From: Candidatus Adlerbacteria bacterium
GTDB lineage: Bacteria > Patescibacteriota > Minisyncoccia > Phycocordibacterales > SBAW01
Direction: 5' to 3'
Assembly (NCBI GenBank): GCA_026397405.1
Contig: JAPLUW010000001.1
Location: 1-41,137 of the forward strand
DNA: 41,137 nt
Each line of letters opens with the position of its first letter. The first letter of the stretch is position 1. Of this stretch, positions 3,672 through 21,276 are shown piece after piece. Below the pieces are notes generated by a model. It did no database searches. It was not told the origin of the DNA and saw only the letters and a list, made by a program, of their open reading frames with translations. The position numbers were made by a program, and so were the translations under genes.

Positions 3672-4094
3672 CTAATTTATTGCCATTGTGATTACTGCAA
3701 AAGATTTATTGTATTCAGAGTAACGTTCAAATAAAAAAGTTGGTAATGCCTCAGAATCTACTTCCCTAAAACCAAGTTGTTCATAAAATTTTTTTAGATG
3801 TGGGTATGGAAGGCAGTAACAAAGTCGTCCTTCTAGATCAGTAATTAAAGCTCGTACAAGTAGTGTTCCAATCCCACGCTGTTGATGCTCTACTGCGACA
3901 TTGAGGGTTCTCATCACAAGCACTTCATGTTCAGGTACAAGACGCACAGCCCCAACGATGCGATCATTCTCCTTCGCAACAAATACAATTTCTGATAGGT
4001 CTAGCACGTCATCTTCTCCAACAGTGTTATAGAAAAGTTCAACCTCCTTATATTCATTAAGTTTTGCTTTTGAAATGGCAAACATCCATCCCAT
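3672..4094 (-). CDS. GNAT-family N-acetyltransferase
   Basis: 140 aa. It has the acetyl-CoA-binding motif QQRGIGTLLVRAL, and AAGGAG lies 5 nt upstream of the ATG. Confidence 0.8.
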   Translation of the reverse strand: MGWMFAISKAKLNEYKEVELFYNTVGEDDVLDLSEIVFVAKENDRIVGAVRLVPEHEVLVMRTLNVAVEHQQRGIGTLLVRALITDLEGRLCYCLPYPHLKKFYEQLGFREVDSEALPTFLFERYSEYNKSFAVITMAIN

Positions 4095-4149
4095 AGTACT
4101 CCTTACTTAAAACAGATTCGAACATCATCTATTTGTACTTCAGAACTGA

Positions 4150-4155
4150 TATAGT
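4150..4155 (+). promoter_or_regulatory. TATAGT -10-like box 6 nt upstream of ATG 4162
   Basis: TATAGT, then atattt, then ATG. Confidence 0.35.
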
Positions 4156-4161
4156 ATATTT

Positions 4162-4374
4162 ATGCATCTAAAAAAGTGGCTTTTGTATATAACAAACAAT
4201 GAAGAAGTTTCTCGTCATGAAGAAGAATTTGATATCGCCTTTTTTATTATTAACACGTTGGCTGTCATAGGTGGGAGTATATACGTTGCCTGTATTGGGC
4301 AATGGGAGTGGATACCGTTTCTTGTTATTGAATATACTTGGGCTATCGACACCATGCGACACAACAGACCTTAG
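4162..4374 (+). CDS. Small membrane protein, hypothetical
   Basis: 70 aa with two hydrophobic segments and a -10-like box just upstream. Confidence 0.4.
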   Translation: MHLKKWLLYITNNEEVSRHEEEFDIAFFIINTLAVIGGSIYVACIGQWEWIPFLVIEYTWAIDTMRHNRP

Positions 4375-4415
4375 TTTGAAACATCTAGAATTAAAAAGCA
4401 CCGCGTACTAAAGAT

Positions 4416-4814
4416 ATGATTCGCCGTTCAATGATACGTTTCGGTCAATACACTGTGATTGGCACAGCTACGTTTGCACTGGATCTGTGTCTGCTGTTTC
4501 TATTAGTGCAGTACGCCGGAGTACCGTTTTACATCGCAACACCATGCTCGTTTCTTATTGCCGTAAGCGGTAACTATGTTTTAAGCCGACGGTTTGTATT
4601 TGTTGGTACACAACGTGGGTGGAACAGCGGCTATGTCTATTTTATATGCATCGCACTCGCAGGCGCTTTTGTGACGACTACTCTTGTCGTATGGCTTGTT
4701 GCCACCTTTCATCTCTTCTACCTTTTGGCCCGAGCGCTTACCGCAGTTGCGGTTGGTGTTACCAACTATTTCATCAATTTATATTGGAATTTTAAAGTGG
4801 TGGGAAAGCACTAA
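4416..4814 (+). CDS. GtrA-family membrane protein
   Basis: 132 aa with four TM segments. FGQYTVIGTATFALDL...NYVLSRRFVF is the typical GtrA signature. Confidence 0.8.
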   Translation: MIRRSMIRFGQYTVIGTATFALDLCLLFLLVQYAGVPFYIATPCSFLIAVSGNYVLSRRFVFVGTQRGWNSGYVYFICIALAGAFVTTTLVVWLVATFHLFYLLARALTAVAVGVTNYFINLYWNFKVVGKH

Positions 4815-4871
4815 CTAGAGCTCGCGGATTTTAGAATATATGGTACCGTGCCTCCAGAGGAGGACGTGGCA

Positions 4872-5156
4872 ATGGCAGGATCGTTCGAGAGAATCGTCAA
4901 TGACGGGGGTGGCGTCGAGGCGGGACAGCCCCGCACACAGAAGTACGGGGAACACCAGGTATTTCCCCAAAACGCCCAGGACATGATCAGGGCTTCGGCT
5001 GTCCTTTTGAAGCTCACGAACGAGCTGGTGAAGCTCTTCTTGCGCCAGCTTAAGGCTGAGAACGAGAAGGATCGGGTGGTATTGGATGTATACCGCCAGC
5101 GGCTCAGCCAAAAGGAGTTGCCGGGCGAGTACACGTTCGCCGACTTTATGCGCTAG
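4872..5156 (+). CDS. Hypothetical protein, GC-rich and SD-led
   Basis: GAGGAGGA (4857-4864) lies 7 nt before ATG 4872, and a strong plus-strand terminator follows the stop. The ORF track opens this frame at 4848. Confidence 0.55.
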   Translation: MAGSFERIVNDGGGVEAGQPRTQKYGEHQVFPQNAQDMIRASAVLLKLTNELVKLFLRQLKAENEKDRVVLDVYRQRLSQKELPGEYTFADFMR

Positions 5157-5191
5157 GTCCTTGCTGAAGCTGGTCATCCGCTGTCGCCCTA

Positions 5192-5227
5192 GGCCGCCTC
5201 ACATGTGAGCGGCCATTTCTTTTTTTA
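5192..5227 (+). terminator. Intrinsic terminator
   Basis: GGCCGCCTCACA/TGTGAGCGGCC stem with one bulge, followed by ATTTCTTTTTTT. Confidence 0.7.
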
Positions 5228-5246
5228 TACAAGAAAATTCTGAGGG

Positions 5247-5252
5247 TATACT
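5247..5252 (+). promoter_or_regulatory. TATACT -10-like box 6 nt upstream of GTG 5259
   Basis: Exact TATACT, then ttcagt, then GTG. Confidence 0.45.
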
Positions 5253-5258
5253 TTCAGT

Positions 5259-5765
5259 GTGAACAAAATTGTACTCATTGGGTGCCCGGGTGCGGGGAAA
5301 ACAACTCTTGCTAGAAAGCTAGGGGCCAAACTCAATATTCCTGTCCACCATCTAGACAAGTATTTTTGGAAAGAAAACTGGACGCCCACACCACAAGCGG
5401 AATTTAGAAAGATACAAGATGAACTAATGAAAGAAGACCGGTGGATAGTCGACGGTAATTTTACTAAGTCCATTGATAACAGGGTGACAAAAGCCGACAC
5501 GGTTGTATTTTTTGATTTTCCAAAAACTACCCTTGTGTGGAGATACCTTAAAAGATTCGTCCAAGACTTTAATAAAGTCAGGCCTGACATGGGCGGAGAC
5601 AATAAAGCCTCATTCAACCCCACTATTATATGGAACCATATTACGTTCGTTCTGAAATTTCCGAGGAACGAAGTTTATACAACTCTAAAAGAGCATGCTC
5701 AAGATAAGAACGTCGTTATTCTGCGTAACACAAAAGAAGTCGCCACTTTCCTAGACAACGCATAA
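5259..5765 (+). CDS. P-loop kinase, adenylate-kinase / topology-modulation-protein-like
   Basis: 168 aa. It has Walker A GCPGAGKTTLARKL at the N-terminus, and its size and layout match small AAA/AK-like kinases. Confidence 0.8.
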   Translation: MNKIVLIGCPGAGKTTLARKLGAKLNIPVHHLDKYFWKENWTPTPQAEFRKIQDELMKEDRWIVDGNFTKSIDNRVTKADTVVFFDFPKTTLVWRYLKRFVQDFNKVRPDMGGDNKASFNPTIIWNHITFVLKFPRNEVYTTLKEHAQDKNVVILRNTKEVATFLDNA

Positions 5766-5811
5766 GCACAGCGGAGCAAATGTTTAGTAACCAACCCACC
5801 GTGTAGCGGGT

Positions 5812-5817
5812 TAGAAT
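5812..5817 (+). promoter_or_regulatory. TAGAAT -10-like box 6 nt upstream of ATG 5824
   Basis: TAGAAT, then ctttat, then ATG. Confidence 0.35.
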
Positions 5818-5823
5818 CTTTAT

Positions 5824-6168
5824 ATGACTATGTCAAAAACAAAATTTGTTATTCTCTTCATCATTTTTGGATTTGCCTTCCTTTTTATCACTACATCACT
5901 TTTAGGGTCAACTGGGCCCCGGGGCTTTCCTCAGCCGCCAGACTCTATCCTTACGACGGGGTCCGATTCGCCTATAGCCTGGAAGAATGCTGTGTCCACA
6001 ATTATTTTACCTATCAAAGTTGTTTTGATAGGTCCGTTGGCCTTGCCCCAAGTTAATTTTTTGAAAGAAGATCCCCCACCCCCATTTGTTGGAATCTACT
6101 TTATTTTCTACTGGACCATACTTGCACTACTTATCCATTATTTTCTCGGCAAACTAAAACACTCTTAA
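5824..6168 (+). CDS. Membrane protein, hypothetical
   Basis: 114 aa with N- and C-terminal TM helices. Confidence 0.5.
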   Translation: MTMSKTKFVILFIIFGFAFLFITTSLLGSTGPRGFPQPPDSILTTGSDSPIAWKNAVSTIILPIKVVLIGPLALPQVNFLKEDPPPPFVGIYFIFYWTILALLIHYFLGKLKHS

Positions 6169-6206
6169 TAGGTTCCTCATATGAGTTTCATTAAGATGTA
6201 GCGACG

Positions 6207-7058
6207 ATGTCGTTTTTTATCCGCCACAGACATGTGGTTATAGCTGCAACAGGATTTGCCGTACTCTTGGCTGCACTATTTCTCTTTGTGTATATACAAA
6301 ACAACTCACATGTTGCGGGCATTGTTCCGGGTGGCGGGCAAACCGCCACAACAACATCGCTTACTGGAGCCCTTCAGCCGCCCCTATTTGAATATCTAGA
6401 AGTCGTTGACGGATGCGGTCCCTATTACAACACTGGCGTCTGTGTAAATATGCGCTCGGGCCCCGGTACAAAATACCCTGCCGTTGCGCGTTTGCGCACA
6501 GGCGTGGTGTTGCGGGTAGAAAAGGAAATAACAATAGACGGCCGTGTGTGGGACAAAATTAAATTTGATAACGAGGTGAAGTACCCAGACCGCCTCCCTC
6601 CGGACTTGTATGTTGCCGCTGAATTCGTGCGCAACTTCTACGACGACGGCAACCACCTACTTGTAAAAGGCAGCGCACCAACAACAAAACGTATCGTCGT
6701 TGATGTAGGCAAGGAAATGCTCTACGCATACGACGGCGACACATTATTTATGCAGGAACCTGTTTCAACAGGGCTCGAACTCACTCCCACCGCGCGCGGT
6801 ACATTTACCGTTTTTAAAATGACACCTGCCCGCTACATGCAAGGGCCCCTACCAGGCACAAGCGACCAAGTGTACGACCTGCCCGGAGTGCCCTGGAACT
6901 TGTACTTCACAAAAGATGGTGCAGTTATACACGGCGCATACTGGCACGACCATTTTGGAGAGCCATGGTCGCACGGGTGCGTAAATCTTCCGCCACAAAG
7001 TGCAAAAAAACTCTACGACTGGGCAGTCGTGGGGACACAAGTGATTGTGAAGGACTAA
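6207..7058 (+). CDS. L,D-transpeptidase (YkuD family) with an SH3b-like domain
   Basis: 283 aa. It has an N-terminal TM anchor, an SH3-like VNMRSGPGTKYPAVARLRTG segment, and the catalytic block HGAYWHDHFGEPWSHGCVNL. Confidence 0.85.
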   Translation: MSFFIRHRHVVIAATGFAVLLAALFLFVYIQNNSHVAGIVPGGGQTATTTSLTGALQPPLFEYLEVVDGCGPYYNTGVCVNMRSGPGTKYPAVARLRTGVVLRVEKEITIDGRVWDKIKFDNEVKYPDRLPPDLYVAAEFVRNFYDDGNHLLVKGSAPTTKRIVVDVGKEMLYAYDGDTLFMQEPVSTGLELTPTARGTFTVFKMTPARYMQGPLPGTSDQVYDLPGVPWNLYFTKDGAVIHGAYWHDHFGEPWSHGCVNLPPQSAKKLYDWAVVGTQVIVKD

Positions 7059-17973: not shown

Positions 17974-18453
17974 ATGCATACTAAAAAACTTATTTTGGCT
18001 ATTGTTCTCTTTTTTGTCATTATCATCGGACTTGCAGTACTTGCATTTGTCCCTTCGCACAATGCACACGCCCCAACGGGGAATACCCAAGCCACAACTA
18101 CCCCTACTACCGCAACAGAACCTGCGCACCTCGCCGACCTTATTGTAGTAACGTCGCCACTTCCCCACGCAACAGTTACATCGCCACTTGTGGTAACGGG
18201 CCAAGCTCGCGGCAATTGGTATTTTGAAGCCAGCGCGCCGGTTGAACTGCGTAACGCCGCGGGTGCCGTTATTGCACAGGGCCATGTAGAAGCACAGGGC
18301 GACTGGATGACCACCGAATATGTGCCCTTCACTGCAATACTTACGTTTCCTGCCCAAGCACCAGGGTCTGTCGGCATGTTAGTACTCAAAAACGACAACC
18401 CATCGGGCGACCCAGCACGCGAAAAAGAATTGGATATTCCGGTCCATTTTTAA
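17974..18453 (+). CDS. Secreted/anchored Gmad2 immunoglobulin-like domain protein
   Basis: 159 aa with an N-terminal TM/signal anchor, a Thr/Pro linker, then VTSPLPHATVTSPLVVTGQARGNWYFEASAPVELRNAAGAVIAQG...VPFTAILTF. Confidence 0.65.
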   Translation: MHTKKLILAIVLFFVIIIGLAVLAFVPSHNAHAPTGNTQATTTPTTATEPAHLADLIVVTSPLPHATVTSPLVVTGQARGNWYFEASAPVELRNAAGAVIAQGHVEAQGDWMTTEYVPFTAILTFPAQAPGSVGMLVLKNDNPSGDPAREKELDIPVHF

Positions 18454-19474
18454 TTCTTTTGCTCAGTTTATAGGCATTCCCATGCTTCAACATCCCCAGG
18501 TACGACTGCACCGTCGGGCTATCCTCTTCTAAGCCATACGTCCGTTTCAACATCCGCCGTTTTGTAGTAGTACGTAAAACTCTGTAATCTGGGAAATGCA
18601 CCCAGCCCAAAAAATCGACACCAGATGCAACAGTTTCTATAGAAACTTTATTTGGATGCAGTTGGAGGCGTAATTTGTTCCATAAAAAATCTTTAACTTT
18701 CAATAATATAGTTTCGAGATATTTTTTGTCGCGAGAAAGAAATACAAAATCATCCGCGTAGCGGATATAATATTTCACCTTAAGTTTATGCTTTATAAAC
18801 TGGTCGAACTCGTTCATGTAAATGTTTACCAACAGCTGGGAAGTTAGGTTGCCAAGCGGGAGTCCGACTTCAAGGTTCGACCTTGAAGTAAAGCTGGAAA
18901 TAACCGTTTTTAAGAGCCTAAGAATGTCTTGGTCGGAAATATATTTCTCGAGTATTGAAAATAGAATGGTGTGGTCAATGTTTGCGAAGAACTTTTTGAT
19001 GTCGCACTTCAACACCCATACCGTTTTGCTGTGATTGCGTGAACCTTTTCTCGCATATGCGAAAAAATGACACATTGCGCGATGAGTACCCCTTCTTACC
19101 CGAGAAGAATGCGAATCATAAATAAATTTTTTGTCGAAGAATGGATACAAAATTCTATGTATCGCATGATGCAGGAGTCTGTCACGTACAGATGCCTTGT
19201 GGATATCGCGGGGTTTTGGATCACTGATACGGAAATGATAATACGCGCCATGACGGTACGTTTTATTTTTCAAATCCCGGTGGAGTGCCATGACTTGATA
19301 TATCAAGCCATGCTGAAATTCCAGCACATCTTCTTTGTTGCGTTTGCCGTTTAAAAATTCTTTCCATGCAAGAAGCAAATTTTCGACGGAAATGATATCT
19401 TCATAGGTATGAGTAAAAACCGCTTTGAAACGAACCCCCCCCCAACAGATCTTGCCTATCTTGGAGTATATCAA
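18386..19474 (-). CDS. DGR-type reverse transcriptase
   Basis: 362 aa. It has the RT motifs KCDIKKFFANIDH, GLPLGNLTSQLLVNIYMNEFD (the DGR-typical [LI]GxxxSQ) and YIRYADDFVFL (YxDD). It lies adjacent to the TR/VR pair. Confidence 0.92.
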   Translation of the reverse strand: MIYSKIGKICWGGVRFKAVFTHTYEDIISVENLLLAWKEFLNGKRNKEDVLEFQHGLIYQVMALHRDLKNKTYRHGAYYHFRISDPKPRDIHKASVRDRLLHHAIHRILYPFFDKKFIYDSHSSRVRRGTHRAMCHFFAYARKGSRNHSKTVWVLKCDIKKFFANIDHTILFSILEKYISDQDILRLLKTVISSFTSRSNLEVGLPLGNLTSQLLVNIYMNEFDQFIKHKLKVKYYIRYADDFVFLSRDKKYLETILLKVKDFLWNKLRLQLHPNKVSIETVASGVDFLGWVHFPDYRVLRTTTKRRMLKRTYGLEEDSPTVQSYLGMLKHGNAYKLSKRIKNGPEYPILFRVLGRPMGCRF

Positions 19475-19832
19475 ACAGTCCTATCTGCTCTGGCATGAAT
19501 ATTATTCTACACTCCCAAAAGTCCATCGTTATACCGTCGGGGAGAAAATAGACACCCTTTTTATTGAAATAATAGAAGCCACATCAAGTGCGGCATTTCT
19601 CCCGCGTGGTGAAAAAACACCGTGGGTGCGCCTTGCCATACGCAAACTCGATACATTGAAGCTCCTATTAATGATACTTTGGGAAAGCAGTTCTCTTTCG
19701 GATAAAAAATACATCGCTCTTTCTGTAAAAATAGATGCGGTGGGAAAAATGTTCGGCGGATGGAACAGCCAAATCCTTCGACAAGCTCAAGACAAGCAAA
19801 ACTCCTCCGAGAAAAAGTCGGAGGAGAAATGA
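19425..19832 (+). CDS. avd: Avd-like four-helix-bundle protein (accessory variability determinant / 23S-IVS protein family)
   Basis: ILPILEYIKQSYLLWHEYYSTLPKVHRYTVGEKIDTLFIEIIE...KLDTLKLLLMILWE...KKYIALSVKIDAVGKMFGGW matches the four-helix-bundle family pattern. The start is TTG 19425, with alternatives TTG 19452 or 19461. Confidence 0.8.
   Translation: MKRTPPQQILPILEYIKQSYLLWHEYYSTLPKVHRYTVGEKIDTLFIEIIEATSSAAFLPRGEKTPWVRLAIRKLDTLKLLLMILWESSSLSDKKYIALSVKIDAVGKMFGGWNSQILRQAQDKQNSSEKKSEEK
19435..19443. repeat. C9 (plus) / G9 (minus) homopolymer inside the overlapping 5' ends of RT and avd
   Basis: Read directly as cgaaCCCCCCCCCaacag. It spans RT codons 11-14 (TGT TGG GGG GGG GTT) and avd codons 4-7 if avd starts at TTG 19425. 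Confidence 0.9.
19802..19826 (-). other. Perfect 9-bp stem-loop immediately 3' of TR on the minus strand
   Basis: On the minus strand, CTCCTCCGA-ctttttc-TCGGAGGAG is followed by TTTTGCTTG. It lies inside the last codons of avd on the plus strand. Confidence 0.5.
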
Positions 19833-19838
19833 AGAGAG

Positions 19839-19966
19839 TTGCGGGAACGAGGAACGCCGAGGCGCCATTGTCATTCCACTTGTTGCCGGGCTTGTCCCAA
19901 TACGTGTTGACCCAACTCCCGTCATCGTTACGGTTCGAGTTGAGGACGTTCGGGTTGCCGTCGGAA
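19839..19966 (-). repeat. DGR template repeat (TR)
   Basis: Gap-free 128-nt alignment with 20293..20420. All 17 differences fall at plus-strand T in this copy, which is A on the minus strand. Confidence 0.9.
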
Positions 19967-20200
19967 ACGTGCGCGACATCATCTCTATCACCATCCATCG
20001 AGTACTCTCTGGATTGAATCGCATTCGGCATCACAATGCCCCAAAGCCGCGCACCAAGTATCTTCAATTTTTGAAGTGTCTACATATGTCACACTATTCC
20101 AAACGCAGTTCGTCAGGAACACTCTGGACACATGGATACTGGCCTCGGCAGCGGGCAATCCAGTGTCGCCCGCGTATTCGCCTACTGCCACTTTCATTGT

Positions 20201-20239
20201 AACAAAGAAAAATCCGCCGCCCCAAAGCCGGGGCGGCGG
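20201..20239 (-). terminator. GC-rich hairpin plus U tract 45 nt downstream of the target-gene stop
   Basis: On the minus strand, CCGCCGCCCC-ggcttt-GGGGCGGCGG (10 bp, all GC) is followed by ATTTTTCTTTGTT. Confidence 0.6.
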
Positions 20240-20284
20240 AAACAAAGGTCATAGCGTCTAAGTACAAGAGCTGGAGGCCGACGC

Positions 20285-20986
20285 CTAAGCGCTTGCGGGA
20301 ACGAGGAACGCCGAGGCGCCATTGCCACCCCACTTGCAGCCGGGCTTGACCCAAGACGAGTCGACCCAACTCCCGTCAACGCCACGGTCCGAGATGAGGA
20401 CGCGCGGGTTGCCGCCGGAATCCTGGATGGTGTCGTAGAGCGCTACGATATACCAGAAGCCCATCTTCTCCATCTGCTTATCGGAGACCGACTCGCGGAT
20501 GCGTGGGATGACGCCCGCCAGCGGCTTGCCGTAGCCGTACTTCTCCGTGCCGAGCTTCTGCAAGGCCTCCGTGGTACGGTCGGCGTCGCGCTTTATTTCC
20601 TTGTGGGGAACCAGCGCGATTTTGTACTTCTGCCCGGCGACAAGGCGATGCTTGGCGTCATAGCTGTCGGGCTTCGTACTGGTGAGGCAGGACTTGGCGT
20701 AGTCACCGACGCGATACTTCGCGCCGAGGAGCCGTTCCACTTCTTGCCCACCCGTGAGGTCGAGCCCTTTGATGGTGAGCACGATGTGACCGTGCTCGTT
20801 GCGTTCGAAGACGGGCGGCGGAAGCGTCGGGCAACCAGCCTGCAGGAAGGCGGCGAGATTGTCGCGTGCCTTCTTGTCGTTGACCGGCAGCATGAGCTGT
20901 TCGGCATTGATGCCGACCTTATTCATGACACGGAAAAATTTAGCGGCCGCGTCGAGATTGTCACTGAGGGTTGCGATGTCGAGCAT
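20285..20986 (-). CDS. DGR target (variable) protein with an unrecognised N-terminal domain and a C-terminal variable region
   Basis: 233 aa. GGAGG lies 6 nt upstream of the ATG. The C-terminus ...DSGGNPRVLISDRGVDGSWVDSSWVKPGCKWGGNGASAFLVPASA is encoded by the VR. No N-terminal hydrophobic signal is visible. Confidence 0.85.
   Translation of the reverse strand: MLDIATLSDNLDAAAKFFRVMNKVGINAEQLMLPVNDKKARDNLAAFLQAGCPTLPPPVFERNEHGHIVLTIKGLDLTGGQEVERLLGAKYRVGDYAKSCLTSTKPDSYDAKHRLVAGQKYKIALVPHKEIKRDADRTTEALQKLGTEKYGYGKPLAGVIPRIRESVSDKQMEKMGFWYIVALYDTIQDSGGNPRVLISDRGVDGSWVDSSWVKPGCKWGGNGASAFLVPASA
20293..20420 (-). repeat. DGR variable repeat (VR)
   Basis: It occupies the last ~42 codons of the target ORF and ends 2 codons before the stop. 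See TR. Confidence 0.9.
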
Positions 20987-21276
20987 CGGATGCCTCCAAT
21001 TATTGTTGAAATGAGCTGTCCTGAGGCCATATATACGGTCCCATCAGCCATCATAAATTATACATGTAATTGGAGTTTCGTCAAGTTTTGTCGTCGCCAT
21101 ACCTTAAAACTATTTTTAATTTTCCAGTGGGACAAAACTTTCATTTTTAGGCAAAAATGAGGGGTAAAAAATGACTAATCTACAGCTTTTTTAGAGAAGT
21201 TGCGATTTGTGTGTTGCTTTTTATCAAAAAAGTTCTCGGATTTGCTATTCACAGCATAATTTAATGAAAAAAGGAG

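Follow-up and report, generated by a model that had tools for sequence, protein, structure and literature searches.

The stretch analysed here (the window) comprises 41,137 nucleotides of the genome of a Candidatus Adlerbacteria bacterium (assembly GCA_026397405.1, contig JAPLUW010000001.1) and contains a diversity-generating retroelement (DGR), whose target gene (20285..20986, (-)) was delimited by open reading frame (ORF) call and homologue searches and codes for a variable protein of 233 amino acids plus stop codon. The DGR is intact and of the type found in the Candidate Phyla Radiation (CPR, or Patescibacteria), with this gene as its hypervariable target and with the order target with its variable repeat (VR), template repeat (TR), inverted avd gene and reverse transcriptase (RT) gene. 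The translation is exactly the protein quoted in an initial annotation of this DNA, made from the letters alone, which had named it as a 233-residue DGR target, an identification borne out by the adenine-confined differences between the repeats and by the adjoining RT and avd genes. The host genome has 637,775 bp in two contigs and is 91% complete, which fits a Patescibacteria/CPR organism and agrees with the reduced genome that the same annotation had assumed.

The TR (19839..19971, (-)) is a 133-nt direct repeat of the VR (20293..20425, (-)), the true homology between both extending over positions ~20293-20420, that is, residues ~190-231 of the target. Along this span of ~128 nt, every mismatch between TR and VR is located at an adenine of the TR (17/17), and all 17 affect position 1 or 2 of a codon of the target. 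In principle, the design of the TR makes 19 codons variable, equivalent to ~10^17.6 proteins. The 3' block of the VR (20293..20324, (-)), 32 nt that are identical in the TR, encodes the invariant last strand of the protein (GASAFLVPA, strand E223-228 in the structural model presented below) and is similar to an initiation of mutagenic homing (IMH) sequence, a role that we infer by analogy with the Bordetella DGR (PMC5758913). Adenine-specific diversification has occurred at this gene, the intact parts and the 17 adenine-confined differences showing past activity only. The initial annotation had quoted a compact variable module from G176 onwards; the TR homology starts at residue ~190 and, therefore, the segment quoted includes ~14 residues of invariant scaffold.

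The RT gene (18386..19474, (-)) codes for a protein of 362 aa that matches RVT_1 (5.3e-27) and phrog_1423 (4e-107) and contains the motifs LGNLTSQ at residue 207 and YADD at residue 239, in agreement with the (I/L)GxxxSQ and YxDD signatures of DGR reverse transcriptases. The avd accessory gene (19425..19832, (+)) lies inverted between TR and RT, and its product matches bAvd (PF22296, 4.2e-10), DivGenRetAVD (4.6e-12) and phrog_3206, annotated as 'Avd protein of DGR'. The succession TR-(avd)-RT, in which avd is read from the opposite strand, corresponds to architecture B3, which is common to other loci of the family (L003, L007, L070 and L072) and is seen in 90% of the CPR set (PMC5758913). By analogy with the studied DGRs, from which the homing mechanism at this locus is inferred, a complex of RT and Avd would copy the TR transcript, misincorporating nucleotides opposite adenines, and the mutagenised cDNA would then replace the VR, recoding up to 19 codons within the last 45 residues of the target.

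Expression signals are also recognisable around the target gene. A GGAGG sequence is placed 6 nt ahead of its ATG and, further 5', there is a promoter-like site (21057..21084, (-)) of the form TTGACG-16-TATAAT, named so from its agreement with the consensus (11/12 matches). Downstream, 45 nt after the stop codon, a GC-rich hairpin with a 12-bp stem, a 4-nt loop and a T-run (20213..20240, (-)) is a candidate for either the DGR cruciform or a terminator. A second terminator-like hairpin (9-bp stem and T-run; 19802-19826 of the window, (-)) follows the TR directly, within the 3' end of the antisense avd gene, and could stop the TR transcript ahead of the RT gene. Ribonucleotide reductase and envelope genes flank the cassette, and no mobility gene adjoins it. 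The convergent neighbour of RT (17974-18453, (+)) codes for a 159-aa protein with an N-terminal transmembrane (TM)-like segment and a Gmad2 Ig-like domain (6.6e-16), and the 3' ends of both genes overlap by ~68 nt.

The target belongs to a large family, with homologues in 238 clusters at E<=1e-3 (90%-identity collection); a profile of 119 members matched 1187 cluster representatives (50% identity), including 148 below 1e-30. The named hosts are Paceibacteria, Kaiserbacteria, Adlerbacteria and similar groups. The initial annotation had found no family that it could name, and indeed the protein has 0 matches in Pfam (E<=1), NCBIfam, PHROGs and PADLOC, while the 119 relatives have 0 matches in Pfam at the same threshold. 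A profile search of Protein Data Bank (PDB) sequences with the target gave nothing better than E=0.14, with chance PDZ matches only, and the 10 longest relatives revealed no extra informative domain in Pfam. The sole real domain found, PhyH in relative P0255, was discarded because it belongs to a fused downstream gene call. Neither a P-loop nucleoside triphosphatase (NTPase) nor any other signalling domain was detected by Pfam or NCBIfam N-terminal to the VR domain in the target, the 119 relatives or the longest members. One relative (P0007, 386 aa, from a JGI contig of 206 kb) is a single frame in which the target continues across the VR-TR spacer as far as the TR, so that a VR-like and a TR-like segment are both translated, which could reflect the loss of a stop codon or an artefact.

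Conservation within this family redefines the domain organisation of the protein. According to the initial annotation, the ~190 residues ahead of the VR would be an N-terminal domain of no recognisable kind. Strong conservation extends, in fact, from F60 (FERNEHGH...) to the C-terminus, with ~60% identity even between Paceibacteria and Methylocystis hirsuta sequences, and many relatives, 165-185 aa long, comprise nothing else than this block, their matches to the profile beginning at position ~45. Because core-only relatives exist and conservation runs from residue 58 to the end, the ~190 residues ahead of the VR do not constitute a domain of their own: together with the VR, residues 58-187 make up a single conserved module of ~175 residues, as judged from sequence. 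This core (residues 58-233; 20288..20815, (-)) shows ~60% identity across the family and many invariant residues. Only residues 1-57 (20816..20986, (-)) stand apart, as a helical extension that is poorly conserved, missing in many relatives and devoid of signal or TM segments; its helices lie within residues 4-49 of the model, with values of the predicted local distance difference test (pLDDT) of 57-87. The protein would thus be composed of a short variable helical extension ahead of a single VR-containing module of ~175 residues.

An AlphaFold2 model of the target, built with a 119-sequence alignment, reached a mean pLDDT of 87.3 and a predicted template modelling score (pTM) of 0.72, most of the core having pLDDT of 93-98. 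The order of elements assigned by DSSP is E68-73, H79-88, H95-102, E120-127, three helices (139-175), E179-181, E194-200, E207-212 and E223-228. The topology of the C-type lectin (CLec) domains of DGR targets is β1-α1-α2-β2-inserts-β3-β4-β4'-β5, in which β5 is encoded by the invariant IMH and pairs with β1 (Handa 2016, PMC5006420); the order of elements in the model agrees with this succession. Moreover, the last strand of the target (223-228) is exactly what the IMH-like block encodes, and the variable positions alternate with the invariant residues V196, L197, R201, G205, W207, P215, W219, G223 and F227. In this arrangement, the variable residues would be displayed on a C-terminal β-hairpin and loops of a lectin-like domain, closed by the invariant, IMH-encoded last strand.

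The same genome contains a second complete DGR (G000:C1:152232-154811, locus L075), which offers a comparison from within the genome. In the coordinates of that locus, it is composed of an RT (3718-4740, (-)) that is 68% identical to the first one, an inverted avd (4770-5123, (+)), a TR (5128-5257), a VR (5604-5733) and a target gene (5566-6222, (-)) coding for 218 aa, and its TR/VR mismatches are again located at adenines (22/22). This second target is also signal-less and without Pfam matches, and is a member of a different large unnamed family (372 matches). Its AlphaFold2 model (pLDDT 86.5) consists of N-terminal helices, a strand, a helix, a strand, three helices and four strands, which is the same build as that of the first target. 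All of its top Foldseek matches in the PDB (50/50) are C-type lectin domains (CTLDs), with probabilities up to 0.97, among them mincle, rhodocetin, BDCA2, CLEC12A, CLEC5A and NKR-P1; ~120 aligned columns span the whole CTLD and the TM-score on the target is 0.45-0.55. Both targets have in common the VR pattern G-R-x-L...W...W...F-x-[FL]-x-V, and their families align with each other over the VR (hhalign P=0.008). Considering the build, VR pattern and cassette type shared with the second target, together with the topology, we regard it as likely that the 58-233 core of the first target adopts a C-type-lectin-like fold, very divergent and with an insert of three helices.

Several results weigh against this assignment. 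Foldseek searches with the model of the first target against 350,542 PDB chains (best E=2.1) and against BFVD (best E=0.11) gave nothing significant. Two CTLD entries, rhodocetin and MCL, which count in favour of the assignment, are among the weak PDB matches, amid noise. No family member reaches FGE-sulfatase (PF03781) or DUF1566 at E<=1, hhalign against the FGE-sulfatase domains from 301 genomes of the same phylum gave a probability of 0.3%, and the two target families of the genome align with each other over the VR only and weakly (hhalign P=0.008, probability 4.8%). In addition, the β1-β5 pairing and the surface exposure of the variable residues are presumed from the order of elements. These results could point to a genuinely new VR scaffold, a third fold beside CLec and the disputed Ig-like class: the model is of high confidence but has no Foldseek match below E=0.1, neither sequence nor profile tests connect the protein with CLec families, and six VR classes of CPR DGRs (UVR1-6) were already left without a fold assignment by Wu et al. 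(2018, PMC5758913). We consider such a new fold rather unlikely, as the order of secondary structure elements and the IMH-encoded terminal strand agree with the CLec plan (PMC5006420), the similarly built target of the second DGR matches CTLDs only, and Roux et al. (2021, PMC8144416) expect uncharacterised VR domains to be probably new variants of CLec. The case of AvpA, described below, also argues against a new fold, because its structure was equally unpredictable in silico, yet it proved to be a CLec.

AvpA, the variable protein of Nanoarchaeota-related archaea (PMC5006420), is similar to the target in being a single-domain protein of ~200 aa of a nano-sized organism, in having a CLec core (a probable one in the target) interrupted by helical inserts and not predictable from sequence, and in carrying the VR on the last strands, followed by an invariant β5 encoded by the IMH. 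It differs in that no sequence or Foldseek similarity to the target is detectable, in the positions of the inserts and in the extent of the VR, which covers 27 residues in AvpA and ~42 in the target, where it reaches the very C-terminus. Mtd of the Bordetella phage BPP-1 and TvpA of Treponema denticola, both of the FGE subclass of CLec, share with the target the AAY-codon design, a C-terminal VR followed by the IMH and a GC hairpin, and a conserved scaffold of aromatic residues and glycines between the variable positions. In contrast to them, the target has no FGE-sulfatase signature, is neither a phage fibre nor a lipoprotein, and lacks parts for trimerisation or export.

The location of the protein in the cell was addressed with a proxy composed of Kyte-Doolittle hydrophobicity and motif inspection, on a scale where a TM helix needs ~1.6 over 19 residues. 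The highest mean of the target is 0.6 over 19 residues, and 0.97 over 9 residues within its first 40, and neither a lipobox nor a twin-arginine motif was found by motif inspection. The reading frame is shut 19 codons 5' of the ATG, which excludes a longer form carrying a hidden leader. The absence of signal-like and TM segments, already noticed in the initial annotation, is general in the family, as an N-terminal hydrophobic segment is missing in 268/269 sequences by the same proxy, the exception being P0146, with a TM-like segment at its N-terminus. C100 is the only cysteine that is conserved in the family. Since the target has no signal, the family behaves alike and there is no disulfide pattern, the protein is rather probably a cytoplasmic, soluble ligand binder, as far as its sequence indicates. 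Against this, the proxy looks at hydrophobicity and may be compatible with non-classical export. Export or surface display without an N-terminal Sec signal, in order to bind host cells or particles in the manner of classical DGR adhesins, would be in line with the studied cellular DGR targets LdtA and TvpA, which are surface lipoproteins (PMC8867640), with the episymbiotic life of CPR bacteria, in which attachment is central, with the TM-like segment of P0146 and with the possibility, left open by Roux 2021 (PMC8144416), that signals are simply not recognised in divergent genomes. It is, nevertheless, unlikely, given the 268/269 relatives without a hydrophobic N-terminus, the single conserved cysteine and the lack of any secretion gene as a conserved neighbour; furthermore, ordinary envelope proteins of the same genome, such as the Gmad2-domain neighbour, show recognisable leaders.

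CPR DGRs were reportedly first surveyed by Paul et al. in 2017 (Nat Microbiol). The initial annotation had implied that a target of this kind was a novelty, an implication that goes too far, because both signal-less CPR targets and predicted cytoplasmic DGR targets have been published (PMC8144416, PMC10907252). Targets of CPR RT clade 2 are typically without recognisable TM segments or conserved domains, although their genuine non-membrane status 'remains to be established' (Roux et al. 2021, PMC8144416). Fusions of predicted cytoplasmic DGR targets to STAND, AAA or MoxR NTPases were described by Dore et al. (2024, PMC10907252), who, citing Paul 2017, gave a CLec fused to an AAA ATPase as the commonest target architecture in CPR. 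The target of the window resembles these fused proteins in its predicted intracellular, hypervariable sensor surface of CLec type, but it is a stand-alone protein, with no NTPase, signalling or effector domain and no conserved partner gene. Compared with the CPR DGRs described by Wu et al. (2018, PMC5758913) and Roux et al. (2021, PMC8144416), the cassette shows the same inverted avd between TR and RT, the same small target with a C-terminal VR and without TM segment, signal or recognisable domains, hosts among aquatic and groundwater Patescibacteria and evidence of horizontal spread, and it differs in nothing essential. The target is, then, typical of the Patescibacteria/CPR group and not exceptional, a well-documented example of a known, unsolved class.

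Relatives of the target provide direct evidence of diversification in nature. Contigs from three metagenome assemblies (L070, L071 and L072), each with a 221-aa relative and a complete cassette, share the same sequence in the first 525 nt of the target gene and in 200 nt upstream, but their VRs differ at 21 positions, all of which are adenines in the TR (21/21). Differences restricted to the VR and to TR adenines indicate that DGRs diversify the scaffold of this family in nature. The TR of L071 differs from those of L070 and L072 at 6 bases. Three cassette copies in one metagenome-assembled genome (MAG) of Adlerbacteria (L012-L014) were also considered as a test of activity, but their VRs are identical and hence uninformative, the copies being probably assembly duplicates.

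The target gene is frequently found without its retroelement. A full target-TR-(avd)-RT cassette is present in 10/39 genomic loci, while at least 17 loci with adequate flanks contain a target with neither RT nor avd within 5 kb of it. Intact orphan targets, by this 5-kb measure, are those of L019, L021, L022, L024-L026, L028, L029, L031, L032, L035, L037, L038, L040, L041 and L044-L046; L018, L033, L034 and L036 retain fragments of TR, avd or RT. In five orphan genomes that were checked, four have no RT homologue at all and one has an 85-residue fragment, the MAGs being incomplete. Some MAGs contain two copies of the target. The loss of RT and avd in about half of the genomic relatives would be expected if the target were a decaying relic without current function, an explanation that is, however, highly improbable: in the window, the ORF, RT, avd, TR, IMH and hairpin have each remained intact. 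In addition, conservation of the scaffold is strong, full-length frames are retained in orphan copies, and natural diversification is seen in close relatives.

The target gene stands out from its genome by codon composition, its G+C content at third codon positions (GC3) of 0.80 ranking 4/619 among the ORFs of the genome (mean 0.49, sd 0.08). The values of RT (0.44), avd (0.46) and the genes for EF-Tu and ribosomal proteins (0.43-0.57) are much lower, and the second DGR displays the same contrast (0.79 vs 0.46 and 0.36). In the family, over 37 loci, the frequency of C at third positions (C3) is 0.42 in the target scaffold vs 0.28 in flanking genes, and the contrast fades in the most divergent orphan copies. 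Two causes found no support. A depletion of synonymous adenines (an 'A ratchet') is not supported, as A and T at third positions are both lowered (ratios of 0.63 and 0.70 to flanking genes) and the excess is mainly of C; nor is the codon bias of highly expressed genes, from which the target differs (0.80 vs 0.43-0.57 in the EF-Tu and ribosomal protein genes).

Horizontal movement of these cassettes is apparent from their surroundings. The same target-TR-(avd)-RT cassette is present in an isolate of the alphaproteobacterium Methylocystis hirsuta (L003, QWDD01000001.1, 3755745-3768326), with a target and an RT that are each 61% identical to those of the window, and it is flanked by genes with Pfam matches to TrwB/TraG-type coupling proteins and relaxases and by IS66 transposase genes, which suggests that it lies in an integrative conjugative element and was transferred between phyla. 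In a Kaiserbacteria contig, the cassette is close to a serine recombinase. Cassettes among conjugation and IS66 genes and near a recombinase indicate that horizontal movement does occur. It could even be that the cassette is cargo of mobile elements and that the binder serves the element and not the cell, for example in recipient recognition or anti-defence, to which the surroundings of both cassettes, the ~60% identity of the family across phyla and the outlying GC3 of the target would also conform. This explanation is quite improbable, because no mobility gene adjoins the cassette of the window, placed between genes for ribonucleotide reductase and the envelope, no conserved neighbour exists across 37 loci, and there are neither phage structural genes nor PHROG matches for the target. 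When all flanking ORFs of the 37 loci were clustered, only RT, avd and a shadow ORF recurred, and no conserved partner gene was found; a search for homologues and their neighbourhoods, as advised in the initial annotation, thus uncovers a large family with 39 genomic loci and no conserved neighbour besides DGR parts.

We hold, with moderate confidence, that these observations are best explained by an intact CPR DGR that diversifies a cytoplasmic, lectin-like, stand-alone binder. As the target has neither a fused effector domain nor a conserved partner gene, its action is most economically explained by binding itself, which in the cytoplasm might sequester or neutralise a ligand that changes, for example a molecule of a phage or mobile element or one derived from the host. 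A role in defence against phages and mobile elements, or in the handling of host-derived molecules, is a guess, and the defence, sensing or host-interaction roles put forward in the initial annotation are likewise hypothetical. PADLOC gives no support to defence, as the models of PADLOC-DB yielded 0 families for both DGR targets of the genome and the RT alone matches generic RT models. More speculatively, and with considerable doubt, signal-less targets may constitute an intracellular, DGR-driven 'antibody' repertoire of stand-alone lectin-fold binders without a fused effector.

The analysis contributes a domain boundary for this family (a 175-aa core with an optional helical extension) and a confident model that can be used for structural and binding work, and it reveals the natural diversification of the family, its frequent survival without RT and its contrast in composition. 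A family of more than 1000 50%-identity clusters has neither a Pfam nor an NCBIfam model, and a curated entry would be a practical gain. The site of action and the ligands of CPR DGR targets are an acknowledged open question (Roux 2021), which this target narrows but does not answer. That a genome of 638 kb keeps two DGRs, each with a small signal-less binder, implies that they are important for the lifestyle of these bacteria. If the proposed intracellular repertoire is real, the C3-rich codons of the target and the persistence of orphan copies after the loss of RT would be signs that these proteins function and spread independently of the retroelement, and ultra-small bacteria would have a means, inside the cell, of neutralising or sensing the changing molecules of phages, mobile elements or hosts.

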